Under the pieces are notes generated by a model. That model was not told the DNA's origin and made no database searches. It saw only the letters and a list, made by a program, of their open reading frames with translations. 64,000 nucleotides of DNA. Origin: a virus (Duplodnaviria; Heunggongvirae; Uroviricota; Caudoviricetes). Below are positions 7,099-29,003 of the stretch, piece after piece (positions within the stretch are counted from its first letter, which is position 1; every line of letters starts with the position of its first letter). The stretch spans positions 31,417-95,416 of the IMG/VR virus record IMGVR_UViG_2757320620_000001; one strand, given 5' to 3'. A program made the position numbers and the translations under genes.

Positions 7099-7116
7099 TC
7101 AGTAAAAACTGATTGC
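7099..7116. promoter_or_regulatory. motif copy, upstream half of a bipartite module (TCAGTAAAAACTGATTGC)
   Basis: Followed by CATCCCATCGCTACGCTTGTTAG and the second copy at 7139-7158. Confidence 0.5.
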
Positions 7117-7138
7117 ATCCCATCGCTACGCTTGTTAG

Positions 7139-7158
7139 TAAGTAAATATTGATTGAGA
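7139..7158. promoter_or_regulatory. motif copy (TAAGTAAATATTGATTGA), upstream of the cobS-like gene
   Basis: 35 bp upstream of ATG 7193. Confidence 0.5.
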
Positions 7159-7192
7159 GCGACGATAGATCGCAAAATCGAACGGAGATAAA

Positions 7193-8413
7193 ATGAGCGA
7201 CGACATGATCACCTGCCAGATCGACGGCGGGAAAACACATTCCATCCGCATCTATCTCAGAGAGAACCATCCCGACTGGACGGTCGAGCGCTACAAGGAA
7301 GCCTATCCCGGCCAGCCGACGCTGTCTGAGCGTGGCAAGCGAGCCGCGCTGAAGGCCAAAGAGGCTGCTGATCGCAAGTCCGCTGCCGCATCCTTCCAGC
7401 CGGGCCAGGCTTTTGCCTTCGCAGAGCGCTCCCTCTCCGAAATCTTCGGCCTCGATGCGTCGACGGCGCTGTCATCGACCGGCAATCCGATCATGCTGCG
7501 CTGCCTGACCGAGCATCATCCCGAGGCTGACGCCTACGTCAACGACGTCGATGCCGACTACGTCTTCAATATCGACCTCGTCAAGAAAGTCTGCCTCGGC
7601 TTCGAGCTCGGCATGAACGTCTATCTCTGGGGCTATCACGGCACTGGCAAGACGACCGTGCTCGAGCAGTGCGCCGCCCGCACCGGCCGGCCGTTCTTGC
7701 GCGTCCAGCACACCGGCAACACCGAAGAGGCGCACATTCTCGGCCAGTATGTCGTCAAGTCCGTGCTCGTCGACGCTCAGGAGCTCGGCCCCGACGGCAA
7801 GCTCCACATCGTCAAGAAGCCGCAGACCGTCACCGAGTTTCAGTATGGTCCGCTGGCGATGGCGATGAAATACGGCATGGTCTACTGCGCTGACGAATAC
7901 GACTTCGCCATGCCGTCGGTGATCGCGCTCTATCAGCCGGTGCTCGAGGGCAAGCCGCTCGTCATCAAGGATGCGCCGATCGATCAGCGCGTCATTCATC
8001 CGCATCCCGACTTCCGCTTCGTTGCGACCGGCAACACCAACGGCGTCGGCGACGAGACGGGCCTCTACCAAGGCACGATGATCCAGAACGCAGCCTCCTA
8101 CTCGCGCTTCCACATCACCGAAGAGGTGAAATACATGGACGCCAAGCAGGAAAGCCTGGTGCTGCGCTCGAAGGCCGGGCTCGGCAAGGCCGACGCCGAC
8201 AAGTTCGTCAAGGTCGCGAATTCGATCCGCGAGAGCTTCACCAAGGGCGAAATGTCGATGACGATCTCGCCGCGCGAGCTGATCACGGCAGCGTCGCTGA
8301 CGATCGTCTTCGGTAACAATCCGACGCTCGGCTTCAAGCTCGCATTCGCCAACCGCTGCTCCCGCGTCGACCAGGTGACGGTCGAGCAAGTGCTGCAGAG
8401 GCACTTCGCATGA
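7193..8413 (+). CDS. CobS-like / MoxR-family AAA+ ATPase
   Basis: Walker A GYHGTGKTT and Walker B-like VYCADEYD. At 406 aa and immediately after the CobT-like VWA gene, this is the classical CobS/CobT pairing. Confidence 0.75.
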   Translation: MSDDMITCQIDGGKTHSIRIYLRENHPDWTVERYKEAYPGQPTLSERGKRAALKAKEAADRKSAAASFQPGQAFAFAERSLSEIFGLDASTALSSTGNPIMLRCLTEHHPEADAYVNDVDADYVFNIDLVKKVCLGFELGMNVYLWGYHGTGKTTVLEQCAARTGRPFLRVQHTGNTEEAHILGQYVVKSVLVDAQELGPDGKLHIVKKPQTVTEFQYGPLAMAMKYGMVYCADEYDFAMPSVIALYQPVLEGKPLVIKDAPIDQRVIHPHPDFRFVATGNTNGVGDETGLYQGTMIQNAASYSRFHITEEVKYMDAKQESLVLRSKAGLGKADADKFVKVANSIRESFTKGEMSMTISPRELITAASLTIVFGNNPTLGFKLAFANRCSRVDQVTVEQVLQRHFA

Positions 8414-9045
8414 CGATCGACCACAAGGAGAGCGTCGATCTGATCCGGCGTCTGTCCTGGTCGATCGCAAGAAAGCTTCATGGCAACGGCGCAACGTCGC
8501 TCAGCCATGAAGACGTCGAGCAGGAGCTTTGGCTCGTCTGGTGCCGCGCACGCGACACGTTCGATCCGACGCTCGGCGTGCCCTTCAAGGCCTATCTGAT
8601 CGAGGGCATTCGCCGGTCGAAGCTTGCGATCAATCGCCAGATGTTCAAGCGCATCGGCGAGGAGCGCGCCCAGCGGCTCGACGCCCCGGTTGGCAACGAC
8701 GGCGAAGGTGACAACCTGATCGACCTGATGCCCTCGAGCGCACCCTTGCCGGATGCGCAGGTGGATGAAGCCACCCACATCGCATGGGCGCTGAAGAAGC
8801 TGTCAGAGCGCACCGCGCTGTTCCTGAAGCTCCTCTACGAGCAGCCGCCCGAGCTCCTGGAGCAGATGCGTCTGCTGAAGGCGCGCGCTGAATACGCCAA
8901 GTCGATCGGCGCGCAGAACATTCTGATCAGCCACATAACGACGTCCTTCGTGTTTCGCCTGATGGACGCCGATCGCCCGGAACGCACGAAGATCCTCGCC
9001 GAGCTGCGCACGCTCTCCGAGAAGGTTCAAAGGACTGCCGCATGA
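8410..9045 (+). CDS. sigma-70 family (ECF-like) sigma factor
   Basis: Region-2-like segment DVEQELWLVWCRARDTFDPTLGVPFKAYLIEGIRRS. It has an ATGA overlap with the cobS-like gene. Region 4 is less clear. Confidence 0.5.
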   Translation: MTIDHKESVDLIRRLSWSIARKLHGNGATSLSHEDVEQELWLVWCRARDTFDPTLGVPFKAYLIEGIRRSKLAINRQMFKRIGEERAQRLDAPVGNDGEGDNLIDLMPSSAPLPDAQVDEATHIAWALKKLSERTALFLKLLYEQPPELLEQMRLLKARAEYAKSIGAQNILISHITTSFVFRLMDADRPERTKILAELRTLSEKVQRTAA

Positions 9046-9572
9046 ACGCATTTATTCCGTCATTCGCGCCTGGCTGCTTCGGCTCCGCACTCGCATTCGA
9101 GGAGACGGCGCCGGTGTGCGCGGTCTGCGTCTTTGCTGAGACCTGCCGGCCGCTGCACTTTACCAATCTCGAGATCCTGCGAGAGCGCGTCGGCGTGAAG
9201 GGCAAGGGCTCGAAGAAGGCCAAGAACCCGCTCGCTGAAAAGCCAGCGGCGCATCCCGCCGAGCTGACGGTGCCGAAGAAGGTCATGGCGCTGATCGAGA
9301 AGCTCGACAGCTCCAACCTGCGCGTGACCGAGAATTTCGCCAAAGGCGTCAACCCGTTCGCCGGCTCGTCGGGCTTCCTGAAGATCGCCGGGCATCTGCT
9401 GCTCAAGATGCGCCAGCCGCTCGATCGCCACACGCTCGCCTATGCCTTCACGACGAAGCTCGGCTGGACCGAGGGCACGGCTGACAGTCACGCGCGCATG
9501 ACGATCCAGGCGCTCACCCACATTGGCGCCGTCGACAATATCGACGGCCTGGTCACACTGAGGAGAGGCTGA
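9042..9572 (+). CDS. Cys-rich hypothetical protein, possible anti-sigma or zinc-binding partner
   Basis: N-terminal cluster C-x13-CAVC-x6-C. Translationally coupled (ATGA) to the sigma factor gene. Confidence 0.35.
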   Translation: MNAFIPSFAPGCFGSALAFEETAPVCAVCVFAETCRPLHFTNLEILRERVGVKGKGSKKAKNPLAEKPAAHPAELTVPKKVMALIEKLDSSNLRVTENFAKGVNPFAGSSGFLKIAGHLLLKMRQPLDRHTLAYAFTTKLGWTEGTADSHARMTIQALTHIGAVDNIDGLVTLRRG

Positions 9573-9838
9573 TGGCCGGCATTAGGGTGTTCTTCACCTG
9601 CGACTTCACCGAGCAAGGCCTGGTCGGCGCCGGCTACTTCGACATGGTGCTGGAGCATGAGCGCCGGCCCAGCCCCGATTTGCTGCAATATCTCGAGCGC
9701 ACCATTCAATCCGCCTGCCAGCACCCGGTGCTGGTTCACCGTTGGGAAATGACGCCCGCGGTCACCAAAAGCGACATTTATCTGACCCATTCCCAGGAGT
9801 TGCCTATCAATGCACGCCATTCTCGCAGCCCGAACTGA
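9572..9838 (+). CDS. hypothetical protein (88 aa)
   Basis: TGATG coupling to the upstream gene. It overlaps the dnaE start by 29 nt, so this is a weak call. Confidence 0.25.
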   Translation: MAGIRVFFTCDFTEQGLVGAGYFDMVLEHERRPSPDLLQYLERTIQSACQHPVLVHRWEMTPAVTKSDIYLTHSQELPINARHSRSPN

Positions 9839-12800
9839 CTTCTCACTCGGCGAAAGCATTCTCAACGCCGGGAAGCTGGTCGATATCGCCAAAGAGCAGG
9901 GCGCCAAAGCCGTCGCGATCACCGACACCATGAGCGTGACCGGCATGATCGACTTCTCCAACCGCGCCAAGAAGGCTGACGTCAAGCCGATCATCGGCGT
10001 GCGTCTGCGCCTGTCGGAAGATCCGGCCTGGCGTCCGGCCAAGGGTCAGAAGAAGAAGCACATGCCGCCCGAGCACTTCATCACCGCCTACGTGCTGACG
10101 GAGACCGGTCTGAAGGCGATCTACCGGCTGCTCAGCAAGGCCAATGCCGGCGACACCGAGGACGCGGCCGGCAACAAGGTGCCTGGGCGTTTCTACTATA
10201 CGGCCAAGCTCGGCTATGACGATCTCTGGGAAGAGTTCGAAAAGCTAGGCGCCGGCCACCTGGCTGTTCATCTCGGCGACACGCACGGCGTCATCATGCG
10301 CCCCGACGCCGAAGCGATCTGCGCCAAGCTCGTCGATTATCTGCATCCCGATTACGTGTTTGCGCCGCTGATCCCTGTCGATACGCCATATTTCGGCGCG
10401 CTCAACAAGCGCTCGCTGGATCTCGTCGCGCGTTTCAAGGCTCGCCCGCTCGTCGTGCGCCCCGCCTATTACGAGGCCGAGCAGGCTGACGCTCACGAAA
10501 TCATGTCGGCGATCTCCAACGGCAACAAGATTTCCGACGGCTGGCACAAGTCGAATTGGAATAGAGATTTCCACGTTCTGAAGGCAGCCGACCTCGGCGC
10601 TGAAGTCGTCAAGGCTGCAAAGCACGTTGCGCTGCGCGGTGTCGTCGGCGCCGGCGCTCACTTCAAGCAGGGTCTGGCAAACACCGACTGGCTGGTCGAT
10701 ACGGTCGAATACACCTGGTCGAAAGCGCCCGTCTCGCTGCCGGTCATGGCGCCGGACGAATTCGGCAAGCTGGTCGAGGAGTGCAAGCTCGGCTGGAAGG
10801 AGCGTTTCAGCCAGGAGAGCTTCGGGCACAAGCCGGCGCCGCAAGAGCTGGTCGATCTCTACAAGCCGCGCCTGGTCTATGAGCTCGAGGTGCTGAAGAA
10901 GCTGTCCTTTGCGGGCTACTTCCTTTTGGCGCAGGACGTCGTGCGCTTCGCCAAGTCGAACGGCATTCTCGTCGGCCCTGGTCGCGGTTCTGTCGGCGGC
11001 TCGCTCGTTGCGTATCTGATGGGCATTACCGATTGCGACCCGATCCGCTTCGGGCTGCTCTTTGAGCGCTTCATCAACCCTGAGCGTCTCGACCTTCCCG
11101 ACGCCGACCTCGACTTCATGTCGACACGCCGGCACGAGGTCGTCGATTACCTCATCCAGAAGTTCGGCGAGAAGCGCGTCGCCGGCGTTTCGAACTTCGG
11201 CACGCTCGCTGCTGCATCCTCGATCCGCGACGTCGGCCGCGCCTTCGAGATCCCGGAGAAGGAATATTCGATCTCCAAGCTGGTGCCGAAGAAGCACGGC
11301 GCCAACGTCAAGCTGCCGGTGTGCCGCGAGGAAGTCGCCGAGATTGACGAGTTCGCCGGCAAGTATCCCGGCCACTGGGATATCATGGAGCGCATCGAAG
11401 GCACGATCCGCAATATGAGCCAGCACGCGTCCGGCATCGTCGTCGGTGGCGTCGATCTCGAGGAGCGCGCCGTCATCGAGCGCCGCAAAGGCGACAGCGC
11501 CGTCGTCTGCTGGGATAAGCGCATCGTCGAGGATCAAGGCCTGGTCAAGCTCGATATCCTCGGCCTATCCACGCTCGATCTGATCGCGCTGGTGCTGCGC
11601 TACATCTTCGAGCGCCACGCCAAGAAGATCAATTTGATGAAGGTGCCGCTCGACGACCAGGCGGTGCTGAAGAATTTCGCCGCAGGGCTCACCACCGGCG
11701 TCTTCCAGTTCGAAAGCGCTGGCATGCGCAAGCTGCTGCGCGAGCTTGGCGCCGACGGCACCATCACCTTCGACGATATCACCGCGGCGACCGCCCTCTA
11801 CCGCCCTGGCCCGATGGAGTCAGGCATGATGGACAGCTACTATCGGCGCAAGCAGGGCAACGAGACGGTCGATTACGACCACCCGCTGATGGAAGCGGTG
11901 CTGAAGGACACTTTCGGCGTCATCGTCTACCAGGAGCAGGTCATGAAGATCTCGCAGGTGATCTGCGGATATTCCGGCGCCGACGCTGACAAGCTCCGCA
12001 AGATCATGGGTAAGAAATTGCCCGAGGAGATGAAAAAGGAGCGCGGCAAGTTCTGCGACGGCGCGGTCAAGACGATCGGCTGCACCGAGGATTGGGCAGG
12101 CGCGCTGTTCGACAAGATCGAAGGCTTCGCCGGCTACGGCTTCAACAAGAGCCACTCGGTCGAATATTCGCTGATCTCCTGGCAGTCGATGTGGTTGAAG
12201 ACGCACTATCCGGTCGAGTTCTTCGCCGCAGCGCTGACGCAGATGGACGAGGACAAACTGCCGGCGCTGCTGCGCGATGCAGGGCGCTTTGGCATCGACG
12301 TCAACATGCCCGACATCAATATCTCCACCGATCGCTTCGAAATCGTCACCGACGTCCGGCTGGTCATGCCATTCCAGCGCATCAAGGGAATCTCGGGCAC
12401 GACCACCACCGCGATCCTGGCCGCGCGCACAGCCGTCGACGAGAAGACAGGCAAGCCGGTCGGTCCCTTCCAGAATAAGGCCGACTTCCTGGCGCGGGTC
12501 AACAAGACCAGGTGCAACAAGCGGCACCAGGAGAACCTCGATCTCGTCGGCGCATTCTCGCGCATCGAGCCTGGGCAGCTCGGCCCGAACGACCCAAGCC
12601 GCATCCGCGACCAGCTCGAGCTCCTGCCCGGCCTGGTGACGGCGACCGTGCCGGTGCCTCGATCGATGGAGAACGACAAGGCGACAAAGGAAGCGATCGC
12701 CGAGGTGATCGACGATTACAAGGCGGATCTGTCGGAAGACGGCATTATGGTGCAGCCGCATTTCGGCAAGCAAGCGCAGTTCATGATCATCACGGATGCG

Positions 12801-13223
12801 CCGAACAATCCGGAAGAGCAGGAAGGCATGATGTCGATCGGCAAGGCCTCGGCGCCGGTCATCGATGCGCTGATGAACCATCAGCTCGACCGCAAATCCT
12901 TCTATTGGACGGCGCTGCTCAAGCGACCGAAGGCGGGCAAACAGATTTCGCCGGAAGAGATCCGCATGTATCTGCCCTACCTCGAGCGCGAGATCAACGT
13001 CCTGCGGCCGCCCATCATCGTGCTGCTCGGCACGAGCGTCGTTCGCCACTTCCTGCCCGACTTCAAGGGCAAGACCTCCGAGGCGGCCGGCAAGATCGTC
13101 TATCACAAGGAGCTCGATGCGAACCTGGTGATCGGCTTCAATCCTGGCGAAATCTACTATTCGCCCGAGAAGCAGGAGCTGATGGAGGACGTGTTTGCGT
13201 CCGTCATCGATCTCCTCGACTGA
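9810..13223 (+). CDS. dnaE: DNA polymerase III alpha subunit (DnaE-type replicative polymerase)
   Basis: 1137 aa. N-terminal PHP domain, DnaE fingers/palm signatures (GRGSVGGSLVAYLMGITDCDPIRFGLLFERFINPER, GVIVYQEQVMKI) and a characteristic C-terminal region. Confidence 0.9.
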   Translation: MHAILAARTDFSLGESILNAGKLVDIAKEQGAKAVAITDTMSVTGMIDFSNRAKKADVKPIIGVRLRLSEDPAWRPAKGQKKKHMPPEHFITAYVLTETGLKAIYRLLSKANAGDTEDAAGNKVPGRFYYTAKLGYDDLWEEFEKLGAGHLAVHLGDTHGVIMRPDAEAICAKLVDYLHPDYVFAPLIPVDTPYFGALNKRSLDLVARFKARPLVVRPAYYEAEQADAHEIMSAISNGNKISDGWHKSNWNRDFHVLKAADLGAEVVKAAKHVALRGVVGAGAHFKQGLANTDWLVDTVEYTWSKAPVSLPVMAPDEFGKLVEECKLGWKERFSQESFGHKPAPQELVDLYKPRLVYELEVLKKLSFAGYFLLAQDVVRFAKSNGILVGPGRGSVGGSLVAYLMGITDCDPIRFGLLFERFINPERLDLPDADLDFMSTRRHEVVDYLIQKFGEKRVAGVSNFGTLAAASSIRDVGRAFEIPEKEYSISKLVPKKHGANVKLPVCREEVAEIDEFAGKYPGHWDIMERIEGTIRNMSQHASGIVVGGVDLEERAVIERRKGDSAVVCWDKRIVEDQGLVKLDILGLSTLDLIALVLRYIFERHAKKINLMKVPLDDQAVLKNFAAGLTTGVFQFESAGMRKLLRELGADGTITFDDITAATALYRPGPMESGMMDSYYRRKQGNETVDYDHPLMEAVLKDTFGVIVYQEQVMKISQVICGYSGADADKLRKIMGKKLPEEMKKERGKFCDGAVKTIGCTEDWAGALFDKIEGFAGYGFNKSHSVEYSLISWQSMWLKTHYPVEFFAAALTQMDEDKLPALLRDAGRFGIDVNMPDINISTDRFEIVTDVRLVMPFQRIKGISGTTTTAILAARTAVDEKTGKPVGPFQNKADFLARVNKTRCNKRHQENLDLVGAFSRIEPGQLGPNDPSRIRDQLELLPGLVTATVPVPRSMENDKATKEAIAEVIDDYKADLSEDGIMVQPHFGKQAQFMIITDAPNNPEEQEGMMSIGKASAPVIDALMNHQLDRKSFYWTALLKRPKAGKQISPEEIRMYLPYLEREINVLRPPIIVLLGTSVVRHFLPDFKGKTSEAAGKIVYHKELDANLVIGFNPGEIYYSPEKQELMEDVFASVIDLLD

Positions 13224-13282
13224 CCACCCGCAAACCGCGCTGACAAGCGCTATTCTAGTGCAGCAGATCAAAGGAAACGATC

Positions 13283-13822
13283 ATGAGCGAAGAAACGGAA
13301 GAGAAGAAGGCGCACAACAAGATCACGGTGCGCAACTATGTCGAAACGGCCAAGCTCAAGGAGGATCTCGGCTATTCGCTGGTCGACCTCTCCGGCGCCC
13401 AGGCCCAGCAGGCGCAGCTCTTTGCCCATTACGGCGTCCAGGCAGCCAAAGCCGCGCGCCAGGTGGACAACATCAAGCTGCTGCTCGAAAACACCGAGGC
13501 GGCCGTCTACCGCGTCATTCGCGACCAGGCGGTGAAGGCCGGCGAGAAGGTCACGGAAGCCCTGCTTGACAAGCTGGTGACGCGCCATGAGCGTGTGACG
13601 GCCGTCAAGAAGGCGCTGAACGAGGCCAAACAGATCGAGGCGATCGCCAAGACTGCGGTTGAAGCCTTCCGACATCGCAGAGACATGCTTGTCCAGCACG
13701 GCGCCACCGAGCGCGAGGAAATGAAGGGCGAGCTCGTCACCAAGCTGCGCTCCGGCCGCGAGGAAGACCTGTCCAATCTCAAGGCCGGCTATCTCGAGCG
13801 GATCAAGCAGAACGCCGCATAA
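13283..13822 (+). CDS. hypothetical protein (179 aa, coiled-coil-like)
   Basis: ATG with an AAAGGAAACG RBS. No recognisable motif. Confidence 0.45.
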   Translation: MSEETEEKKAHNKITVRNYVETAKLKEDLGYSLVDLSGAQAQQAQLFAHYGVQAAKAARQVDNIKLLLENTEAAVYRVIRDQAVKAGEKVTEALLDKLVTRHERVTAVKKALNEAKQIEAIAKTAVEAFRHRRDMLVQHGATEREEMKGELVTKLRSGREEDLSNLKAGYLERIKQNAA

Positions 13823-13856
13823 ATTTTTCGTCATCCGACGATTTTTCGTCTATCTA

Positions 13857-13880
13857 ACAGTCAGTCAATATTGACTGACT
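13857..13880. promoter_or_regulatory. motif copy, perfect 18 bp palindrome TCAGTCAATATTGACTGA
   Basis: 20 bp upstream of ORF 13900. Confidence 0.55.
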
Positions 13881-13899
13881 TCAACCGCGGAGCCCTCGC

Positions 13900-14151
13900 A
13901 TGAAATTCTCTCTTGAAGACTTCCTCGCCTCCCTGCGCAAGCTGTTTGGTCGCGAGCAGTCCGTCGACAATATCCTGAAGCCGATCACGAAGATCACCAA
14001 CAAGCTCGCCAAGCACGAGCGCGTCCAGAACCGCGAGCGCACTCGCCGCCTGGAAGCTGCCGAGCGTGCCCGCAACGCCGCGATCGCCGCTGAAGCAGCC
14101 GCTCGCCGTGCTGCTGAAAAGCGCTCGAAGATCCTCGACACCTTCGCCTGA
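13900..14151 (+). CDS. hypothetical basic coiled-coil protein (83 aa)
   Basis: Preceded by the perfect palindrome TCAGTCAATATTGACTGA at 13861-13878. Confidence 0.4.
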   Translation: MKFSLEDFLASLRKLFGREQSVDNILKPITKITNKLAKHERVQNRERTRRLEAAERARNAAIAAEAAARRAAEKRSKILDTFA

Positions 14152-14202
14152 AAAATCTTCGATTTTTCTAACGCAACCCGACCGAAAACTGTCTATTCTT
14201 AC

Positions 14203-14230
14203 TTAGCGATTTAGCGATTTCGCTAATAGC
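14203..14230. promoter_or_regulatory. second palindrome family: TTAGCGATTTAGCGATTTCGCTAATAGC, whose core TTAGCGATTTCGCTAA is a perfect 16 bp palindrome
   Basis: 55 bp upstream of the gp32-like SSB gene. A related perfect palindrome TCGCTAATTAGCGA lies at 18180-18193, upstream of the ASCH gene. Confidence 0.45.
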
Positions 14231-14284
14231 AAGCACGAACCGACAAAGCACCAAGCTCACAGCCTCGAAAAAGGAAAACTCGAA

Positions 14285-15226
14285 ATGGCTCTCTCTCCCG
14301 CACTGCAGAAGCTCGTCGCCAATGGCGCCAACAAGTATCAGCGCTCCACTGGCGAGCGCATCAAGCCGAAGGAAGGTATCAACCGCTACCGCATCCTCGT
14401 GCCCGACGTGAACGCGCAGTTCTGGGCCGACCTCGGCGTTCACTGGATCAAGCCGGAAGTTGATGGCAAGGGCAAGCCCATCGCCGTCGTTGGCTGCTCC
14501 GACGTCTGCTTCGGCCAGCCCTGCGAAATCGACACGGCGATCAACGCGGCGCTCTCCGGCGCGATCGACGAAGACTCCAAGAAGCTCTACGAAAGCTGGC
14601 GCGCTCGCAAGACCGTCCTGCTCAACGTTCTCGACCGTTCGAAGGGCTCGACCGATCCCGACAAGGTGCAGATCCTCGAGATCACGACCGGCACCTTCGG
14701 CGCCATCCTGAACATCGTCCAGCAGTATGCCGAAGAAGGCGAAGACATTCTCGACGCGACCGTCGGCATGGATATCTCGATCAGCCGCAGCGGCAAGGGT
14801 CTGCAGACCGAATACACGGTCAACGTCGCGCCCGGCAAGTCCCAGCCGGTCACGAAGGCTCACCTGAAGGACGTTCACAACCTGACCGACCACATCAACA
14901 AGGAATTCTTCCGCGGTGATGAGCAGAAGGCGCTGAACTTCATCGGTCAGGTCGCCCAGGTCAACCTCCCGCGCCTCGGCAACAAGACGCCGACCGCAGC
15001 ACTCACCTCGAAGGCCGCCCAGGTCGATCCGGACGTTGATGCCGATGCACTGGCTGACGCTGCCGATCTCGACGACGCCCCGCCGTTCGACACCGAAGAA
15101 ACGGCACCGGTCACCAAGGCCGCTGCCCGCACTGCTCCGTCCAAGCCGGCTGTTGTCGAAGAAGATGCCGTCGTCCTCGACGACAATGACATCGACGACG
15201 TCCTCGCTGACCTGGACTCCATCTAA
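14285..15226 (+). CDS. gp32-like single-stranded DNA-binding protein with an acidic C-terminal tail
   Basis: Collinear with T4 gp32: RYRILVPD corresponds to AVIRFLPS, the zinc-site segment GCSDVCFGQPCE corresponds to the CSSTHGDYDSCPVCQ region, and KTVLLNVLD corresponds to SYWANILVV. It ends in an acidic tail DDNDIDDVLADLDSI. Confidence 0.55.
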   Translation: MALSPALQKLVANGANKYQRSTGERIKPKEGINRYRILVPDVNAQFWADLGVHWIKPEVDGKGKPIAVVGCSDVCFGQPCEIDTAINAALSGAIDEDSKKLYESWRARKTVLLNVLDRSKGSTDPDKVQILEITTGTFGAILNIVQQYAEEGEDILDATVGMDISISRSGKGLQTEYTVNVAPGKSQPVTKAHLKDVHNLTDHINKEFFRGDEQKALNFIGQVAQVNLPRLGNKTPTAALTSKAAQVDPDVDADALADAADLDDAPPFDTEETAPVTKAAARTAPSKPAVVEEDAVVLDDNDIDDVLADLDSI

Positions 15227-15230
15227 GTCG

Positions 15231-15342
15231 TCACTGCGCCGCGCGTTCACGCGCAGTGATCTCTGGCCCGGCACGTCGCGCTGCCGGGCCTGTTCGTCAG
15301 GAGGTTGCACCCCTGTCTCCCGTTGTTCGCTCGCAACCTCCT
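15231..15342 (+). promoter_or_regulatory. three consecutive stable hairpins downstream of the gp32-like gene
   Basis: TCACTGCGC/GCGCAGTGA (15231-15259), GGCCCGGCA/TGCCGGGCC (15265-15290) and AGGAGGTTGC/GCAACCTCCT (15299-15342). None has a clean U-tract. Confidence 0.35.
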
Positions 15343-15373
15343 GACGCCCCTTCCCCGAGATAAAGGCTTAGAA

Positions 15374-16330
15374 ATGTCCCGCTATTTGCTGATCGACGGC
15401 ATGAATATTGCTCATGCGGCCAACAACGCCAAACCGCTGAAGGTGGGCGAGGTTCAGGTTCAAGCCATCTTTCACTTCGTCAAGATCGTCCGCAAGCTCG
15501 TTGCAGCCTACCCGACCGCGAAGCCCGCGGTGCTCTGGGATGGCGCCAGCTGGCGTTACATGGATTTCCCGGACTATAAGTCCGCCCGCAAGAAAGAAGA
15601 TACCGCGACCGCAATCAAGGCGGCCGAAATGAAGAAGATCGCTGAGAGCCAGATCCCGGCGATCAAGAAGGCGATGCAGCTGATCGGCATGCCCCAGGTG
15701 CGCGCGTCGAACATGGAGGCTGACGATCTCGCAGCAATCATGGGCGATCGCTACGCGGCCAAGGGCGGGCGCATCGTGCTCGTCTCCGGTGACAAGGACT
15801 GGGTGCAGCTCGTCAACGACCGCATCATCTGGCTCGATCCGATCAAAGATCGCAAGATCATGAAGCCGGCCGACATGGAGACGGCGATCGACGTCAAGCT
15901 CGACAGCTTCGAGCAGTTCGTGGAAATGAAGTGCCTGGCCGGCGACCAGGGCGACAGCGTGCCCGGCGTCGGCGGCATCGGTGAGAAAGGCGCGATCGAG
16001 TTTCTCAACACCTATGGCTCGACGTCGAATTTTTCCAACATGCTGATCGACAAGACGCTCGATCCGAAGAAGGTCTTGAAGAAGTTCCGCGACTTCGCCG
16101 AGAGCGAGGAAAAGCAGATGATCTTCCAGCGCAATCGCAAGCTGATGGATCTGCGCACGCCGCTGCGCCCCGAGCCGATCAATCTGCGCGTCGACGCCGG
16201 CGAGCCTGATCTCGAGCGCTTCCGGACCTTCTGCAACCGGCTGATGTTCCGCTCGATCGCCAGCGATCTGAAGAGCTGGATCTCGGTCTTCCCCGCATTT
16301 CACTATCTGCAAGAGGAGCTCGCAGCTTGA
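15374..16330 (+). CDS. 5'-3' exonuclease / flap endonuclease (phage RNase H-like, PIN domain)
   Basis: The N-terminal LLIDGMNIAHAANNA matches the FEN/5'-nuclease LLVDGxxLxxRA signature. Acidic metal-binding clusters and a helix-hairpin-helix-like region follow. Confidence 0.8.
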   Translation: MSRYLLIDGMNIAHAANNAKPLKVGEVQVQAIFHFVKIVRKLVAAYPTAKPAVLWDGASWRYMDFPDYKSARKKEDTATAIKAAEMKKIAESQIPAIKKAMQLIGMPQVRASNMEADDLAAIMGDRYAAKGGRIVLVSGDKDWVQLVNDRIIWLDPIKDRKIMKPADMETAIDVKLDSFEQFVEMKCLAGDQGDSVPGVGGIGEKGAIEFLNTYGSTSNFSNMLIDKTLDPKKVLKKFRDFAESEEKQMIFQRNRKLMDLRTPLRPEPINLRVDAGEPDLERFRTFCNRLMFRSIASDLKSWISVFPAFHYLQEELAA

Positions 16331-16530
16331 TCCCGACCTTTCTCATCTACTTCATCGCCGCCTGGCTCTACCTGGTCGGCGCCGTCGTGACGCTGTTCAT
16401 CGGCGCCGGCATCAAGAGCCTCTACCGCTGGCGCCTGGCGCTCGCCGCGCTCTTCTGGCCGCTCACCTGGGCCTATATCCTGATCGCCGCTGCGATCGAC
16501 ATGCTCAAGGATCGTCGGCATGCAAACTGA
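16327..16530 (+). CDS. small membrane protein (67 aa, two predicted TM segments)
   Basis: Hydrophobic sequence IYFIAAWLYLVGAVVTLFIGAGI...LFWPLTWAYILIAAAI. TTGA coupling to the upstream gene. Confidence 0.35.
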   Translation: MIPTFLIYFIAAWLYLVGAVVTLFIGAGIKSLYRWRLALAALFWPLTWAYILIAAAIDMLKDRRHAN

Positions 16531-17065
16531 AGCAAACCCCAAGGGCGAGCCGAAGCGGGCGCTCGAGCAGGCCATCAGCAAGATCGGCAAGGCTTACGGC
16601 GATCTGCTGCGCGTGGCTGAAAAGCACGGCCACGAAATCGGCCAGACGGACTACGACAAAGCCCGGTTCTTCCTCGACAGCACGATCGGCAAGATCTGGG
16701 AGAAGATCGACGTGGTGCGCGACGTTGCCAAGGCGACGAACGGCGATTTCTCGCTCGACAGCATCGAGCTGCCGGAGACCGAAACCCTGCAGATCAGGAC
16801 GGCGACCGGTGTGAAGGAATGGCAGGTGCCGAAAGGAGCGCCCTTCGCGACGCCGGCTGTTATGCCCGTTGTGCCGGCCGGCCCGATCGACGCCTCGAGA
16901 ATGGACGGCCGATCCCTGGCGCAGGCCATTGGCGGGCGCCTCACAAAGCAGGCTAAGGCCGCGATTCCGCGTCCGACGCAGTCAGTCAATACTGACTTAG
17001 ACGACGACCTTGGCCCAACAGATACGTCATTTGAGGATGACGGTGCAGACTTCATCGACGAATAG
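16520..17065 (+). CDS. hypothetical protein with an acidic C-terminal tail (181 aa)
   Basis: Ends in DDDLGPTDTSFEDDGADFIDE, an SSB-tail-like acidic patch. A motif copy at 16981-17000 lies inside its 3' end. Confidence 0.45.
   Translation: MQTEANPKGEPKRALEQAISKIGKAYGDLLRVAEKHGHEIGQTDYDKARFFLDSTIGKIWEKIDVVRDVAKATNGDFSLDSIELPETETLQIRTATGVKEWQVPKGAPFATPAVMPVVPAGPIDASRMDGRSLAQAIGGRLTKQAKAAIPRPTQSVNTDLDDDLGPTDTSFEDDGADFIDE
16981..17000. promoter_or_regulatory. motif copy (GTCAGTCAATACTGACTTAG) inside the 3' end of ORF 16520..17065, 76 bp upstream of the recA-like gene
   Basis: Seen directly. Confidence 0.45.
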
Positions 17066-17075
17066 GAGAAAAACG

Positions 17076-18179: not shown

Positions 18180-18255
18180 TCGCTAATTAGCGAAAATTGC
18201 CGTTCAACTCCGATGAATTCCAGTCTATTAAAGAAGCAAATCAGCGGAGACGAAC

Positions 18256-18765: not shown

Positions 18766-19081
18766 AGACGTTTACCTCGCCGCCCGGAAGCTCGATCAGA
18801 TCTTCCGGTTCGGCGAGAAGTGCAACTCGGATGCGCTGCGCAAGGACGTCGCGGCCTGGGCGCTGGATGAGGAAACTATCACCGAGCTGCGCCTGATGAA
18901 GATCGTCTGGGTTGGCGTTCGCGTAAAGCAGAACAACGACATCTACATCACCCGGATCGAAAACTTCTTTGACAGCAAGAAGACCAAGTTCCTGAACTTC
19001 GAACGCCGCGGCGGGGCCGCGCAGCGCTACCTTCCCCTGAAGCATTTCAAGCACATTCCCGGCGCCGTTAAAATCCGCTGA
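18683..19081 (+). CDS. hypothetical protein (about 132 aa)
   Basis: Overlaps the end of the ASCH gene in another frame. AT-richer codon usage makes this a weak call. Confidence 0.3.
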   Translation: MARKPKVPTTIVRRGRRIYGHIYHFANRDVYLAARKLDQIFRFGEKCNSDALRKDVAAWALDEETITELRLMKIVWVGVRVKQNNDIYITRIENFFDSKKTKFLNFERRGGAAQRYLPLKHFKHIPGAVKIR

Positions 19082-19084
19082 AGA

Positions 19085-19103
19085 GTCAGTAAAAACTGAT
19101 TGC
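19085..19103. promoter_or_regulatory. motif copy, upstream half of a bipartite module (GTCAGTAAAAACTGATTGC)
   Basis: Same architecture as 7099-7158. Confidence 0.5.
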
Positions 19104-19134
19104 GTCCCTATCTGCGACGCGCTATTCAAGCATT

Positions 19135-19155
19135 AGTCAGTCAATAATGACTTAC
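19135..19155. promoter_or_regulatory. motif copy (AGTCAGTCAATAATGACTTAC) followed by an AGGAG RBS
   Basis: 11 bp upstream of the small ORF at 19166. Confidence 0.5.
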
Positions 19156-19165
19156 AGGAGATTTA

Positions 19166-19342
19166 ATGTTTTACCGCATCATTTCGGCGGGCGGCGCGCT
19201 CGGTGTCGCCATTGCGATCGTCAATGTGGCGCCTGTCGCCTGGGCTGCAAATCAATGGGATACCTGCGTGGTTATCCTCGCCGCAAACCTCACCGTCTTG
19301 CGTTGGGTGCTCGATGCAATCGAGGGAGAGAAGAGCAAATGA
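19166..19342 (+). CDS. unlisted small hydrophobic protein (58 aa; MFYRIISAGGALGVAIAIVNVAPVAWAANQWDTCVVILAANLTVLRWVLDAIEGEKSK)
   Basis: ATG at 19166 lies 6 nt after an AGGAG RBS. Its stop overlaps the sbcD ATG (ATGA). It sits directly downstream of the bipartite motif module at 19085-19155 and is below the 60 aa cutoff of the ORF track. Confidence 0.4.
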   Translation: MFYRIISAGGALGVAIAIVNVAPVAWAANQWDTCVVILAANLTVLRWVLDAIEGEKSK

Positions 19343-20430
19343 GCTACGTCGTCATTTCGGACCTTCACGCGCACAAGTGGTCGACCTTCTCGACCTTCAC
19401 GACCAATGGCGTAAACAGCCGTCTGCAGATTATCCTCGACGAGCTGTTGCGCGCCGCGCAGGCCGCTAAAACGATTGGCGCCGAGTTCATCATCTGCGCC
19501 GGCGACATTCTGCACGTCCGCGGCTCGATCGACCCTGAAGTGCTCAATCCGCTCCAGGCTGTCATCAAAGAGATCCTCGACATGGGCCTCGATATCTACG
19601 CGATACCAGGCAATCACGACCTGGCCGGCAAGGACACGACGGCGCTCGGCAACGCGATCAACACGCTCGCCGAGACGAAGAGCGATCACGGTGACTTCCA
19701 TGTCTACAATGAGCCGAGGGGTGTCACGCGGAACAATCATCATGTGGCGATGGTCCCGTATCGCATGAAGACGGAGCTTCTGCTCGCTGATCTTGCCGAG
19801 CTCGCGAAGCACCCTCATAAAGCCGAAATGGACGTCTTCATTCACGCCGGCATTGATGGCGTCCTGCCTAACATGCCCGATCACGGGCTCACCGGCGAAA
19901 TGCTGGCTGACTTCGGCTTCCGCAACGTCCTTGCCGGCGACTATCACAATCACAAGCAGGTTGTGCCGGGCGTCTGGTCGATCGGCGCAACCACGCATCA
20001 GACCTGGGGCGACGTCGGCAGCAAAGCCGGCTTCCTATCGGTCGATGACAATGGCGCCGTTGCCTTCCATGCGACCCACGCGCCGCGCTTCGTCGATGTC
20101 AGCGGTATGGATGAGGCTGACATGGCGCTTGCGGCCGACGGCAACTATGTCCGCTTCTCCGGCCCAGAAATGACCTCGAGCGATATCGCCGAGCTGCGCA
20201 AGTTCCTCGAGGACGCCGGCGCCGAAGGTGTCGTTATTATGGCGCCGAAGAAGGTTACGGCGACCGCACGTAGCGGCACGCCCAAGACCGGCACCGTCAC
20301 CGTCGATGAGTCCGTCGCCAACTTCATCGACGAGGCCAAGGATATCTCGACGCTTGTCGACCGCGCCCGGCTGAAGGTCGAGTGCGCCGAGGTGCTCAAC
20401 GCTGCCAGAGCGGTCACTGAAGACGCCTGA
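19339..20430 (+). CDS. sbcD: SbcD/Mre11-family calcineurin-like phosphoesterase (nuclease subunit)
   Basis: Motif I ISDLHAH, GDILHVRG and the GNHD motif (IPGNHDLAG) identify the metallophosphatase fold. The ORF-track start at 19147 is trimmed to the ATG at 19339. Confidence 0.8.
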   Translation: MSYVVISDLHAHKWSTFSTFTTNGVNSRLQIILDELLRAAQAAKTIGAEFIICAGDILHVRGSIDPEVLNPLQAVIKEILDMGLDIYAIPGNHDLAGKDTTALGNAINTLAETKSDHGDFHVYNEPRGVTRNNHHVAMVPYRMKTELLLADLAELAKHPHKAEMDVFIHAGIDGVLPNMPDHGLTGEMLADFGFRNVLAGDYHNHKQVVPGVWSIGATTHQTWGDVGSKAGFLSVDDNGAVAFHATHAPRFVDVSGMDEADMALAADGNYVRFSGPEMTSSDIAELRKFLEDAGAEGVVIMAPKKVTATARSGTPKTGTVTVDESVANFIDEAKDISTLVDRARLKVECAEVLNAARAVTEDA

Positions 20431-24636: not shown

Positions 24637-24803
24637 GCGGCAATCTCTACCAGCTCCAAACGACCGCTCGCCCAGGTCAGATCATGACCATCGCCGGCCC
24701 GTATGACACCTATGGTCGGGTGATCAAACTGCAGGACAGCGGCTTCCACCTGATCCGCGGCCTCGGGCACCAGAAGCCATCGGGATTGACGATCTCCAAG
24801 TAA
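24634..24803 (+). CDS. hypothetical protein (56 aa)
   Basis: ATGA-coupled. Confidence 0.3.
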
Positions 24804-24840
24804 CTTTTTCGAAATACCGAGGCCAAACTGACTATTCAGC

Positions 24841-24860
24841 AGTCAGTAAACATTGACTAA
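24841..24860. promoter_or_regulatory. motif copy (AGTCAGTAAACATTGACTAA)
   Basis: Upstream of ORF 24871. Confidence 0.5.
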
Positions 24861-24870
24861 CGAGGAATGA

Positions 24871-25377: not shown

Positions 25378-25380
25378 CAC

Positions 25381-25953: not shown

Positions 25954-25975
25954 TCTGCGTAAAATTCAAGCCTAT

Positions 25976-25999
25976 GCAGTCAGTCAATATTGATTTAGC
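25976..25999. promoter_or_regulatory. motif copy (GCAGTCAGTCAATATTGATTTAGC) flanked by inverted CCTATGC/GCATAGG
   Basis: Upstream of nrdB. Confidence 0.5.
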
Positions 26000-26037
26000 A
26001 TAGGCACCCTTTCAAATCCAAGATCACGAGACACGCC

Positions 26038-27000: not shown

Positions 27001-27014
27001 CGAGGACTGAAAAC

Positions 27015-28697
27015 ATGCGAAACGATTATGCCTGGCTGAACCAGGTTGCCCTAACGACGCTCTCGCGCGGCTATCTGCGCGAGGGCATTGCGCCTGAAAA
27101 CCTCAAGGACGAGGCGATCGCCCGGATCAACGCCATCGTCGATCGCGCCGAAGAGATCCTCGGCTTCGAGTTGCCGACACTGCGCTACGGCATAAAGCGC
27201 GGCTGGGTCTCGCCCGCCTCTCCCATCTGGTCGAATTTCGGCGCCGGCCGCGGTCTGCCGATCAGCTGCAACGGCAGCTATATGGCCGACAACATGGATT
27301 CCATCCTGTTCAAGAATGCCGAGATCGGCATGATGACCAAGGAAGGCGCCGGCACGTCTGTCTACATGGGCGCTCTGCGCGCGTTCGGGAAGCCGATCTC
27401 GGGCGGTGGCCGCTCGGAAGGCCCGACGCACTTCGCCCGTCTGCCGCAGGAGCAGGTCACTGTCGTCTCGCAGGGCAACACCCGGCGCGGCAATGCGGCC
27501 GTCTATATCGATATCGAGCATGAGGACGCCGATCGCTGGCTGGACATGCGGTCGATCTCCGGTGGCGTGCATCACCCGATCCAGCACCTGTCGTTCGGCT
27601 TGGTTATCGGCGATGATTGGATGAACGCCATGCTCGCTGAAGAGAAGGGTGGCCCGAAGCGCAAGCTGATGGCGAAGATCCGCAACAAGCGGCGCGAGAC
27701 CGGCTTCCCCTACCTGATCTTCCGCGACAACGCCAACAACGCCCGGCCGGATGTGCTTAAGCGGCTTGGTCTGCTGATCTACGCGTCGAACCTCTGCACC
27801 GAGATCATGTTGCCGTCGGGACCGGATGAAAGCTTCGTCTGCGATCTGTCCTCGGTCAACCTGCTCTATTACGACGAATGGAAGGGCACGCCGTTCGTCC
27901 GCGAAATGATCTATCTGCTCGATGCGGTGATGTCCGAATACATCGAGAAGATCAAAGGCGTGCGGCTGCTGGCTGATGCGCTGCGGTTTGCGGAGCGCTG
28001 GCGCGCGCTCGGCCTTGGCGTTCTTGGCTGGCACTCGCTGCTTCAATCGCAGATGATCGCCATCGAAAGCGACGAGGCGCGGGCGCTGAATATCGAGATC
28101 AGCGAATACATCGCCACCGAGTCGCACGCCGCATCCCGCGACCTGGCTGAACGGCTGGGCGAACCGTCGGGCCTGAAGGGCACCGGCTACCGGAACCTGA
28201 CGGTCAATGCGATCGCGCCGACCACGTCCTCCTCGATCATCTGCGGCCAGGTTTCGCAGCAGCGCGAGCCGTGGACGGCAAACATCTTCGAGAACGACAA
28301 TGCCAAGGGCGTCTTCACGCAGCGCAACGTCTTCCTCGAGGAGCTGCTCGAAAGCAAGGGCCGCAACGACCAGCAGACCTGGCTCTCGATCCTGCAGAAC
28401 GCCGGCTCGGTGCAGCATCTGGACTTCCTGACGCAGCACGAGCGGAACGTCTTCAAGACCTTCGCCGAGATCGACCAGGCCGAGCTGATCCGCCAGACGG
28501 CAGACTGCCAGAAGTTCATCGACCAGGGTATCAGCCACAACATCATCCTGCCGCCTGACGCGACGATGAAGGAAGACATCGATCTGATCGTGCTGGCGTG
28601 GAAGAGCGGGCTGAAATCGCTCTACTATCGCAAGGGGCTCAACAAGGCGCAGGAGCTGGCTCGCCAGAACGCGTCCTGCGTGGCGTGCGAGGCATAA
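27015..28697 (+). CDS. nrdA: ribonucleotide reductase large (catalytic) subunit
   Basis: Active-site N-x-C-x-E is present as SNLCTEIM. A C-terminal Cys pair (CVACEA) is the redoxin shuttle. Short at 560 aa. Confidence 0.8.
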   Translation: MRNDYAWLNQVALTTLSRGYLREGIAPENLKDEAIARINAIVDRAEEILGFELPTLRYGIKRGWVSPASPIWSNFGAGRGLPISCNGSYMADNMDSILFKNAEIGMMTKEGAGTSVYMGALRAFGKPISGGGRSEGPTHFARLPQEQVTVVSQGNTRRGNAAVYIDIEHEDADRWLDMRSISGGVHHPIQHLSFGLVIGDDWMNAMLAEEKGGPKRKLMAKIRNKRRETGFPYLIFRDNANNARPDVLKRLGLLIYASNLCTEIMLPSGPDESFVCDLSSVNLLYYDEWKGTPFVREMIYLLDAVMSEYIEKIKGVRLLADALRFAERWRALGLGVLGWHSLLQSQMIAIESDEARALNIEISEYIATESHAASRDLAERLGEPSGLKGTGYRNLTVNAIAPTTSSSIICGQVSQQREPWTANIFENDNAKGVFTQRNVFLEELLESKGRNDQQTWLSILQNAGSVQHLDFLTQHERNVFKTFAEIDQAELIRQTADCQKFIDQGISHNIILPPDATMKEDIDLIVLAWKSGLKSLYYRKGLNKAQELARQNASCVACEA

Positions 28698-28699
28698 GG

Positions 28700-28948
28700 A
28701 TGGGTATTCACGTTCTCGTCCGGACTACGCCGCCCTGCGGCTACTGCGTCAAGACCAAGGCTCTGCTCGACATGAAGGGTCTTGCCTACACGACCGAGGA
28801 TCACGAGACGCCGGAGAGGGTCGAGGCCTTCAAGAACGCCGGGCACCGCTCCTTTCCGCGCGTCTTCATCGATGACGAGCTGATCGGTGGTTTCGACGAG
28901 CTGCAGGCGCACCTTCAGGACAAGTCGTCGGGAGATGATGATTTCTGA
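28700..28948 (+). CDS. glutaredoxin (NrdH-like)
   Basis: The motif C-G-Y-C in TTPPCGYCVKTKALL is the glutaredoxin CxxC active site. The gene is 82 aa and sits directly after the RNR genes. Confidence 0.7.
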   Translation: MGIHVLVRTTPPCGYCVKTKALLDMKGLAYTTEDHETPERVEAFKNAGHRSFPRVFIDDELIGGFDELQAHLQDKSSGDDDF

Positions 28949-28980
28949 AAATAACTGTTGAGTCCCATCGCTGCGCTTGC

Positions 28981-29003
28981 TAGTAAGTAAATGTTGATTG
29001 AAC
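28981..29003. promoter_or_regulatory. motif copy (TAGTAAGTAAATGTTGATTGAAC) in the loop of an 11 bp hairpin (CGCTGCGCTTG/CAAGCGCAGCG), part of the third bipartite module
   Basis: The stretch 28974-29012 is 36/39 identical to 7120-7158. Confidence 0.5.

Follow-up and report, generated by a model that had tools for sequence, protein, structure and literature searches.

A dispersed palindrome as candidate operator at predicted promoter cassettes of Rhizobium phage RHEph10 and its phage-plasmid relatives

Regulation of a mobile element through dispersed copies of one DNA site is known from the IncP plasmid RK2, the L5-type mycobacteriophages and the phage-plasmid P1. Here we describe a variant of such a dispersed operator regulon that, as a wider control system, appears to be undescribed. 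It was found in a 64,000-nucleotide stretch of viral DNA (the window; IMG/VR record IMGVR_UViG_2757320620_000001) that is 100% identical to Rhizobium phage RHEph10 (JX483881 / NC_034248), record positions 31417-95416. Its element is a palindrome of two 7-bp arms and a 4-bp centre, T[C/A]AGT[C/A]A-ATAT-T[G/T]A[C/T]T[G/T]A, frequently extended to 22 bp. An initial annotation had noticed it as the full motif of a module at three places, 7099-7158, 19085-19155 and 28955-29003 (c1, c2 and c3 below; coordinates are those of the window unless the record is named). Comparison of these places with the rest of the genome and with related elements leads us to think, with modest confidence, that each is a copy of the phage's usual promoter-operator cassette, the palindromes being bound by a phage-encoded repressor. 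The three modules would then be nothing unusual within an operator set that spans the genome and the wider family. The literature that we searched held no description of this motif in this phage group.

RK2 and the present element are alike in that a mobile element carries at least a dozen copies of one palindrome, many of them beside promoters, and encodes a ParB-fold protein (KorB in RK2) that is not needed as the partner of ParA. They differ in the site, a 7-4-7 palindrome of 18-22 bp here against the 13-bp OB operator, and in its number, 27-42 against 12. Many sites here lie on the predicted −10 box or transcription start, unlike OB, and the ParB-like protein of the phage (gp085, discussed below) has its putative DNA-binding part in a C-terminal strand-helix-helix rather than in a helix-turn-helix (HTH) like that of KorB. 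In Cluster A mycobacteriophages, some members of which are extrachromosomal, 20-30 sites for one repressor are spread over a temperate phage genome (the stoperators of L5 gp71; PMC6550527), and motif and repressor drift together between related phages (PMC6550527); here too the motif drifts, over tens of dispersed sites. Stoperators, however, are 13-14 bp long, lack dyad symmetry, are bound non-cooperatively, are oriented with transcription and lie mostly off promoters (PMC6550527), whereas the sites described here are palindromic and promoter-proximal. In the phage-plasmid P1, the lytic genes are divided among many separately controlled transcription units, and the late promoters have an inverted repeat between −35 and −10. 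P1 uses two systems for different gene classes, an asymmetric 17-bp C1 operator and the 9-bp inverted repeat of Lpa (PMC10695390), whereas here one palindrome stands at every gene class. Neither a C1 nor an Lpa family member was found among the few proteins scanned, which was not a direct test.

Number, placement and spread of the palindrome

A degenerate 19-mer built from the motif at c1, c2 and c3 matched 25 times in the window (0.01 expected). An iterated position weight matrix (PWM) detected 39 sites of 21-40 bits in the 115-kb genome, and the maximum in dinucleotide-shuffled genomes was 13 bits. Position counts revealed two-fold symmetry with both arms conserved equally; a perfect 22-bp example, AGTCAGTCAATATTGACTGACT, lies at 13859-13880, and strand bias was only mild and limited to one position (16 vs 3). 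Of the genome, 92% is coding and 8% non-coding, and nearly all genes of the window are on the + strand. Thirty-two of the 39 palindromes are wholly intergenic and stand nearly always just 5' of a gene. Four are fully intragenic, two of these 46 and 74 nt upstream of rIIB and recA, and 11 palindromes end 7-15 nt before an ATG, adjoining the Shine-Dalgarno sequence. Sites are present alike in replication, nucleotide-metabolism and structural-gene regions, while the plasmid-maintenance genes repC and parA are without strong sites and the weakest of all 39 sits before the HTH gene gp041.

RHEph10 encodes RepC, ParA and a ParG-like ribbon-helix-helix (RHH) protein (gp091), which points to life as a plasmid prophage, and near-full-length plasmid relatives exist. 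One of them, a Pararhizobium plasmid of 115.6 kb, covered 85% of a 6.5-kb query at 80% identity. The same motif occupies orthologous places in phages Y2_11 (92% identical, 42 sites) and N1_10 (86%). Phage B1VFA, ~76% identical in conserved genes, has 39 palindromes of another sequence, TAAGTAA-N4-TTACTTA; B1VFA-type phages have been described as phage-plasmid-like, with a near-identical plasmid (PMC12509600). Four plasmids have palindromes of the 7-4-7 layout at 0.30-0.34 sites per kb, with arms specific to the lineage: those of the Pararhizobium plasmid are of RHEph10 type, those of pLM21S1 and the Shinella plasmid TAAGTAA, and those of the Methylobacterium plasmid TAAGTCA or TCAGTCA. Taken together, geometry and site density recur in plasmids of Sinorhizobium, Shinella, Methylobacterium and Acinetobacter and in Salmonella phage SSU5. 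Beyond the alphaproteobacteria, the palindrome of Acinetobacter pABTJ2 reads TTAGTAA-GCGC-TTACTAA, and Salmonella phage SSU5 has 27 sites per 100 kb at equivalent places (upstream of its portal, minor-tail, cobS, SSB, sbcD, nrdA and thyA genes). With respect to the gene start, orthologous sites are placed alike even in distant relatives.

Predicted promoters and palindromes at the three places

All boxes and palindromes of c1, c2 and c3 were assigned to the + strand. c1 lies between cobT and cobS. Its upstream palindrome, site A (TCAGTAA-AAAC-TGATTGC, 7099-7116, 26.0 bits), is identical in Y2_11 and overlaps with its right arm a predicted −35, TTGCAT (7113-7118). A 17-bp spacer starting CCC (7119-7135) leads to the predicted −10, TAGTAA (7136-7141), a weak match that aligns with GCTATAA of B1VFA and pLM21S1 promoters and overlaps the left edge of site B; the layout is that of the TCC(C)-N12/13-GCTAT(AA) elements of B1VFA. 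Site B (TAAGTAA-ATAT-TGATTGA, 7139-7156, 39.4 bits) covers the −10 and the predicted start, is kept in all RHEph10-type relatives and ends 36 nt before the cobS ATG (7193). c2, between gp057 and the small gene gp058, which precedes an sbcD-like gene, begins with a site A of the same sequence (TCAGTAA-AAAC-TGATTGC, 19086-19103, 25.3 bits) overlapping a predicted −35, TTGCGT (19100-19105). The 17-bp spacer (19106-19122) again starts CCC, and the segment is orthologous to cTGACGCATCCC...GCTATAA of B1VFA and pLM21S1. The predicted −10, TATTCA (19123-19128, within GCTATTCA), fits the TCC-N12/13-GCTAT pattern, and its orthologues are GCTATTCA in Y2_11, GCTATAAA in the Pararhizobium plasmid and GCTATAA in B1VFA, pLM21S1 and Shinella. 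Site B of c2 (TCAGTCA-ATAA-TGACTTA, 19137-19154, 32.9 bits) spans about +2 to +19 and adjoins the Shine-Dalgarno AGGAG of gp058 (ATG at 19166).

c3 is found 3' of a glutaredoxin gene, where it opens ~440 nt of non-coding sequence with tRNA-Cys at the far end. It has a predicted −35, TTGAGT (28958-28963), a 17-bp spacer (28964-28980), a predicted −10 with the hexamer of c1 (TAGTAA, 28981-28986) and one palindrome, TAAGTAA-ATGT-TGATTGA (28984-29001, 31.8 bits), which is 100% conserved in Y2_11 and N1_10. A perfect inverted repeat encloses the palindrome (28968-29016; TCGCTGCGCTTG at 28968-28979, CAAGCGCAGCGA at 29005-29016, 25 nt between) and is invariant in the three phages; the initial annotation had seen this hairpin correctly but at 11 bp, and the arms measure 12. 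The region folds at −22.7 kcal/mol as RNA (z = −3.5). The left arm, however, is part of the predicted promoter spacer and precedes the predicted start, so the hairpin would not form in RNA initiated at c3.

The annotation had taken the three places as copies of one bipartite module, a degenerate half-site and a conserved GC spacer preceding the full motif. The places are real and their core motif is far above chance expectation, and pairwise alignment extended two of the three similarities beyond the core. c1 and c3 are identical at 46 of 53 positions with one gap (7103-7156 vs 28949-29001; score 69 vs null 15.6 ± 2.4), and c1 and c2 at 32 of 36 columns (GTCAGTAAAAACTGATTGC.TCCC-ATC-GC.ACGC; score 48 vs null 14.9 ± 2.4). 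The c2-c3 alignment was marginal (score 21, reached by 10 of 500 shuffles), these two being barely alike outside the core. c1 is thus like c2 in its left part and like c3 in its right part, which makes a chain of resemblance rather than one module in three equal copies. The 36/39 identity noted for 7120-7158 also holds, with its c3 partner at 28964-29002, 10 nt from the 28974-29012 first given.

The half-sites fared less well. Those of c1 and c2 turned out to be complete 18-22 bp palindromes with the off-consensus centre AAAC in place of ATAT. c3 has no upstream site (best PWM score −4.3 bits), and the 3' part of its supposed half-site is the predicted −35 box. Conservation among RHEph10, Y2_11 and N1_10 begins exactly there: TTGAGT...CGCAGCGAAA is 100% identical in the three phages, and only 2 of the 9 nt upstream of it are identical in N1_10. 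Two palindromes therefore bracket a σ70-like −35/−10 pair at c1 and c2, 40 and 51 bp apart, and c3 has a single operator candidate. The initial observation is in this sense partly confirmed, and its interpretation as a composite promoter/operator with tandem sites is partly supported, for c1 and c2 and not for c3.

The pairs are kept in relatives. RHEph10, Y2_11, N1_10 and the Pararhizobium plasmid share the 40-bp pair of c1, of which Shinella has an altered form; site A has the consensus centre ATAT in N1_10 and the Pararhizobium plasmid. For c2, the pair recurs at a spacing of 55 bp in Y2_11 and of 50 bp in the Pararhizobium plasmid, both with a consensus upstream site; in N1_10 that upstream site is replaced by a terminator-like hairpin. 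Further tandem pairs stand upstream of gp010 of RHEph10 (48 bp apart; an Ig-domain protein, putative tail protein in the Y2_11 annotation). Y2_11 has two more, one with 62-bp spacing before the major capsid gene and one with 69-bp spacing before phoH.

Such pairs resemble classical dual-operator promoters (lambda OR1/OR2, lac O1/O3, LexA double boxes) in having two dyad sites, one over the −10 or start and one over or upstream of the −35, near-integral helical turns apart. They differ in that one operator is reused here at ~39 promoters, few of which have two copies, and cooperativity is a possibility only. Site A of c1 and c2, centred near −40, is placed as are class I OB sites of RK2. An all-against-all BLAST of the 39 site neighbourhoods returned c1-c3 as the only pair of separate sites alike for at least 26 bp. 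Duplication or gene conversion of a single promoter cassette would account best for this likeness outside the palindrome. Near-identical promoter cassettes in different intergenic regions, as in c1 and c3, recall the PeSL cassettes of T4-type phages; unlike there, one pair only is alike beyond the motif and no sign of gene shuffling by cassettes was seen. An extension of the duplication to the start codon, with a mini-ORF at 29037 as remnant of the cobS start, was not significant (68 of 1000 shuffles).

The conserved GC spacer of the annotation is probably not a linker between binding sites. It reads best, in our view, as the promoter itself, the last base of the −35 followed by the 17-bp spacer, whose CCC start is the TCCC of the annotation. 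The putative σ70-type promoters would combine −35 TTGCAT, TTGCGT or TTGAGT with −10 TAGTAA, TATTCA or TAGTAA in c1, c2 and c3, respectively; the alphaproteobacterial σ70 consensus is CTTGAC-N17-CTATAT. The −35 hexamers begin TTG and the spacer is 17 bp at all three places, and the −10 boxes are weak matches to the consensus. Site A enters the −35 with its right arm (CTGATTGC) in c1 and c2, and the downstream palindrome overlaps −10 and start in c1 and c3 or begins ~8 nt past the −10 in c2. This assignment was derived from relatives only, by comparison with B1VFA and by alignment of the orthologous c1 and c2 regions from eight elements. Many early- and middle-gene sites of B1VFA are preceded by a conserved gcaTCCC-N12-GCGCTATAA. 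TCC-N12/13-GCTAT(AA) elements occur there 12 times on the + strand and twice on the − strand; 8 of the 12 have a palindrome 13-20 nt downstream and 4 stand alone. TTGNNN-16..18-TANNNN pairs were found near 13 of 39 sites in RHEph10 and 10 of 39 in B1VFA, against 0.7 and 0.9 at random positions. Late-gene sites show a second register, TTGACG and TACCAT separated by the palindrome as 17-bp spacer.

Candidate binders and alternative functions

We asked whether the palindrome is read as protein-binding site or as structure. Mirror positions vary independently (at one pair 20 A-G vs 19 C-G; at another 13 of 39 Watson-Crick), and the RNA folds of c1 and c2 do not surpass those of shuffled sequences (z = −1.6 and −1.2). 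Both observations speak against a required RNA hairpin or cruciform; they favour a dimeric protein reading degenerate half-sites. The lack of covariation together with the drift between related elements suggests a phage-encoded dimeric DNA binder, most likely a repressor. The register of the palindrome relative to the promoter boxes varies from ~−40 through the spacer, +1 and +10 to further into the 5' untranslated region. This variability, also relative to the ribosome-binding site, fits a roadblock operator rather than a core promoter element or an activator site of fixed geometry.

A mechanism can be proposed on these grounds. The phage-encoded dimer would occupy the palindromes and block RNA polymerase, the downstream palindrome lying over the −10 and start (c1, c3) or just past the start (c2) and the upstream palindrome of c1 and c2 over the −35, centred near −40. 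Lytic genes would thereby be kept silent while the element lives as a plasmid prophage; such silencing is the simplest interpretation, with repC and parA lacking strong sites and the weakest site before gp041. Two sites flanking a promoter may give tighter, possibly cooperative repression, and the 40- and 51-bp spacings, ~4 and 5 helical turns and thus about one turn apart, would allow cooperative binding.

Sequence and predicted fold single out two candidate binders, the ParB/Noc/KorB-like gp085 and the Xre-type HTH protein gp041. gp085 is encoded outside the window (record 106243-106989). Over residues 1-145 it resembles ParB, Noc and KorB both in sequence and in predicted fold (Pfam ParB_N 1e-8; PDB ParB 2e-12, Noc 1e-11; Foldseek over 140-147 columns with root-mean-square deviation 3.2-3.9, KorB PDB 8qa8/8qa9), with GGEHR in place of the GERR CTP-binding motif, and a disordered linker is present. 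The C-terminus has an extended basic strand and two helices with invariant basic residues and T-H...K and NAGDALV motifs, and may be RHH-like as we read the model. gp085 and the palindrome were both present in 9 of 9 elements examined; in every element checked the gp085 gene and a DEAD-box helicase gene diverge from an interval that contains a palindrome, and gp085 homologues occur in ~1000 plasmids of Klebsiella, Escherichia, Acinetobacter and others. Since ParA already has a ParG-like partner in gp091, gp085 would be free for a KorB-like role, a proposal drawn from co-occurrence and fold. The second candidate, gp041 (133 aa, 3777-4178, + strand), is of Xre/Cro type, with a weak HTH_3 match and distant PDB matches to 434 Cro, C.BclI and C.AhdI. 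Its recognition helix is identical in two lineages that share the RHEph10-type motif. The weakest palindrome (3629-3646, + strand, 21.4 bits) occupies the divergent region between the RHH gene gp040 and gp041, and a site lies ~120-160 nt upstream of the HTH gene in 6 of 6 alpha-group elements examined.

The more specific proposal that the palindromes are operators of gp085 is tentative, and we consider it possible but doubtful. With its ParB N-domain, CTPase-type fold and RHH-like C-terminal module, gp085 would be the master silencer or timing switch of the lytic programme across a supergroup of SSU5, Acinetobacter 'AB' and alphaproteobacterial phage-plasmids (~1000 plasmids). The arms would have drifted per lineage (TAAGTAA, TTAGTAA, TAAGTCA, TCAGTCA), and could set immunity or incompatibility groups.

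Other proteins were disfavoured as binders. The β-strand of the RHH protein gp040 differs between RHEph10 and the Pararhizobium plasmid despite their shared motif, and gp083, a protein with ParB_N and an RHH-like domain, has the same strand in RHEph10 as in B1VFA despite different motifs. The SSU5 'repressor' SSU5_121 is FljA-like and unrelated to gp041. The large protein gp110 was considered as a phage RNA polymerase and dropped; a relative has it annotated as a pectin-lyase-fold protein. By inspection, the palindrome is also unlike the host-factor sites of CtrA, LexA, IHF, Fur and CcrM.

Several observations weigh against repression from these promoters. Host σ70 consensus scans (4000-20000 and 48000-64000) gave no plus-strand promoter at the modules, TAGTAA of c1 and c3 is a poor −10, and RHEph10 encodes a σ factor of its own. 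SSU5 sites mostly lack a −35 (TTG in 2 of 27) and have −10-like TAYNAT hexamers at the outer triplets of the palindrome, an arrangement also compatible with an activator-dependent promoter. The other tandem spacings (48, 55, 62 and 69 bp) are not in constant helical phase. Neither candidate binder follows the motif throughout: the recognition helix of gp041 varies among lineages sharing TAAGTAA, with no clean covariation with motif type, and no gp041 homologue was found in SSU5, although SSU5 has the palindrome; the strand of gp085 differs in pLM21S1, though the motif there is the same. Nor does sequence alone fix the sign of regulation.

The sign is reversed if the palindrome is a positive promoter element. 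A phage activator or RNA-polymerase-associated factor would bind it in place of the −35 contact and turn on all lytic promoters, and the tandem copies of c1 and c2 would be tandem promoters or an enhancer-like extra site. A parallel is P1, whose 11 late promoters all carry the 9-bp inverted repeat bound by Lpa (PMC10695390). Consistent with it, late-gene sites of RHEph10 and B1VFA have the palindrome filling the 17-bp spacer, with the outer arm as −10 (TACCAT, TACAAT) and the centre near −20. In SSU5, TTG is in −35 register at the same 2 of 27 sites and right ends read TAYNAT at 10 of 27, and the intergenic regions hold no other conserved AT-rich element. At c1, c2, c3 and most early and middle sites, however, the expected −10 position has GAGAGC, TACAGG, GAACAC or GCATCC, and a conserved −10 downstream of the palindrome was sought in the site alignment and not found. 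The Lpa-type layout (inverted repeat centred near −22, −10 at a set distance 3' of it, no −35) is absent from c1-c3 and most window sites; its −10 part occurs only in a late-gene subset (record 467, 2745, 13517 and 112695), which also has a −35. At the 11 sites adjoining a Shine-Dalgarno sequence, a start ~26 nt past the palindrome centre would fall beyond the ribosome-binding site. The register to promoter-like boxes ranges from −40 to +40, and activators are normally intolerant of this. A clear polarity of the SSU5 sites, with the −10 at the right end only, is not borne out, −10-like ends being about equally frequent on the left (7 of 27) and the right arm (10 of 27). We regard activation as unlikely.

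Loading of a ParB/Noc-like protein for a DNA-level job (partition, condensation or packaging) is improbable in our judgement. The palindromes would then precede genes because a 22-bp AT-rich palindrome fits only between genes. The N-terminal fold of gp085, conserved over the ~1000 related plasmids, would suit such a role, as would the strikingly constant site density; Noc binds dozens of dispersed palindromes. Yet even intragenic copies stand 46-74 nt before the next gene start, the overlap with promoter-like boxes is far above chance, and orthologous sites keep their gene-relative position in distant relatives. ParA has its partner in gp091, and the 17 kb from record 81.5 to 99 kb with one site only are not explained by condensation or partition.

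A role at the RNA level, in which the palindromes would form hairpins that guide RNase processing, stabilise the transcript or control translation from the neighbouring ribosome-binding site, is very improbable. Many sites do adjoin a Shine-Dalgarno sequence, and the c3 region folds better than shuffles. The palindrome upstream of the minus-strand gene gp088 (record 104322 region) is flanked by CTCCTTT/AAAGGAG, so that the ribosome-binding site could pair with an upstream anti-Shine-Dalgarno sequence across the palindrome and be masked. Against this, variation is not compensatory (an A-G mismatch in 20 of 39 at one pair, Watson-Crick pairing in 13 of 39 at another), the sequence itself is conserved beyond pairing, c1 and c2 fold unremarkably, and the left arm of c3 precedes the predicted start. 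An intrinsic terminator or structured hairpin was rejected likewise, the palindrome being AT-rich, without U tract and without covariation. A promoter, or part of one, for the phage σ factor gp045 is scarcely credible: a σ70 region-2 protein is encoded at 8410-9045 and conserved in alphaproteobacterial relatives, and the motif differs between phages as the σ factor does (34% identity, RHEph10 vs B1VFA), but true two-fold symmetry with equally conserved arms is unlike σ-factor elements, the register is variable, and tblastn of SSU5, which has the palindrome, found no σ homologue. We thus retain, at the modest confidence stated above, a phage-encoded repressor at the palindromes.

Remaining sites, neighbouring elements and significance

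Most of the other palindromes of the window were assigned to the + strand. In the region from the HTH gene to cobT, one stands upstream of gp042 after a terminator-like hairpin (4252-4269) and one 10 nt 5' of the cobT start (4541-4558). The site upstream of gp050 (13861-13878) is part of the perfect 22-bp AGTCAGTCAATATTGACTGACT, and the site 74 nt 5' of recA (16982-16999) is within the gp054 coding sequence. Further sites lie 8 nt 5' of gp068 (24843-24860), upstream of the gene for the ribonucleotide reductase β-subunit (25980-25997), immediately 3' of tRNA-Cys and 7 nt 5' of gp171 (29367-29384), and upstream of gp164 (32475-32492). The site upstream of rIIA (33860-33877) is preceded by gcaTCCC-N13-CTATTC, and that 46 nt 5' of rIIB (36204-36221) is within the rIIA coding sequence. 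Those at 38577-38594, 46933-46950, 47590-47607 and 50067-50084 are found 10 nt 5' of gp158, upstream of gp140, upstream of gp139 and 8 nt 5' of gp132, respectively. Two sites were given no strand: one upstream of gp151 (41950-41967) and one upstream of gp112 (57305-57322), where TTTACT of the right arm, 17 bp and TACAAT form a σ70-like promoter. The 17-kb run of small function-unassigned genes from gp132 to gp098 (window 50100-64000, record to ~99 kb) has one palindrome only, against one per 2-3 kb elsewhere, and may represent a single long operon or a class of genes under different control.

A second repeat was observed in the genome. Heptads TTAGCGA/TCGCTAA form arrays of 2-4, direct and inverted, at 14203-14240, 18180-18205 and record 98.4-109.4 kb. 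One array follows a CTATTC box directly and precedes the SSB gene, another is the palindrome TCGCTAATTAGCGA 5' of the ASCH gene, and eight more clusters lie near the parA region; the B1VFA SSB promoter carries TAGCTAATTAGCTA. These arrays look like the operator set of a second regulator, perhaps an RHH protein. 3' of c3, a ~380-nt non-coding stretch (29017-29393) includes the tRNA-Cys, which ARAGORN and Rfam place at 29292-29366/29363 and the RefSeq annotation, ~20 nt off, at 29312-29383. The stretch also holds a conserved 4-codon mini-ORF (ATGAAGCGCCTTTAG, 29037-29051) behind a Shine-Dalgarno-like sequence, a conserved block and, before the tRNA, a long stem, CCCTTATGCGAAGTGCG...CGCACTTCGCATAAGGG, whose arms differ in N1_10 and are still complementary. 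Rfam reported only tRNA-Cys in the c3 region. The stretch may be a structured phage RNA. gp001 (142 aa), encoded at the very start of the RHEph10 record (record 33-461), corresponds to the SSU5 major capsid protein over the C-terminal part of the latter only, so the linear record was apparently opened inside the capsid gene.

One 7-4-7 palindrome thus stands at nearly every transcription unit, with geometry, density and position conserved from Rhizobium phages to Salmonella phage SSU5 and Acinetobacter plasmids, the latter often in clinical isolates. If its binder is a master repressor or switch, the lysis-lysogeny control of a large and little-studied phage-plasmid group would become directly testable. 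Superinfection immunity groups would then be predictable from the arm sequence, and the system would provide a compact, portable operator-repressor pair. If gp085 is that binder, KorB-type ParB regulators would be extended to phages.

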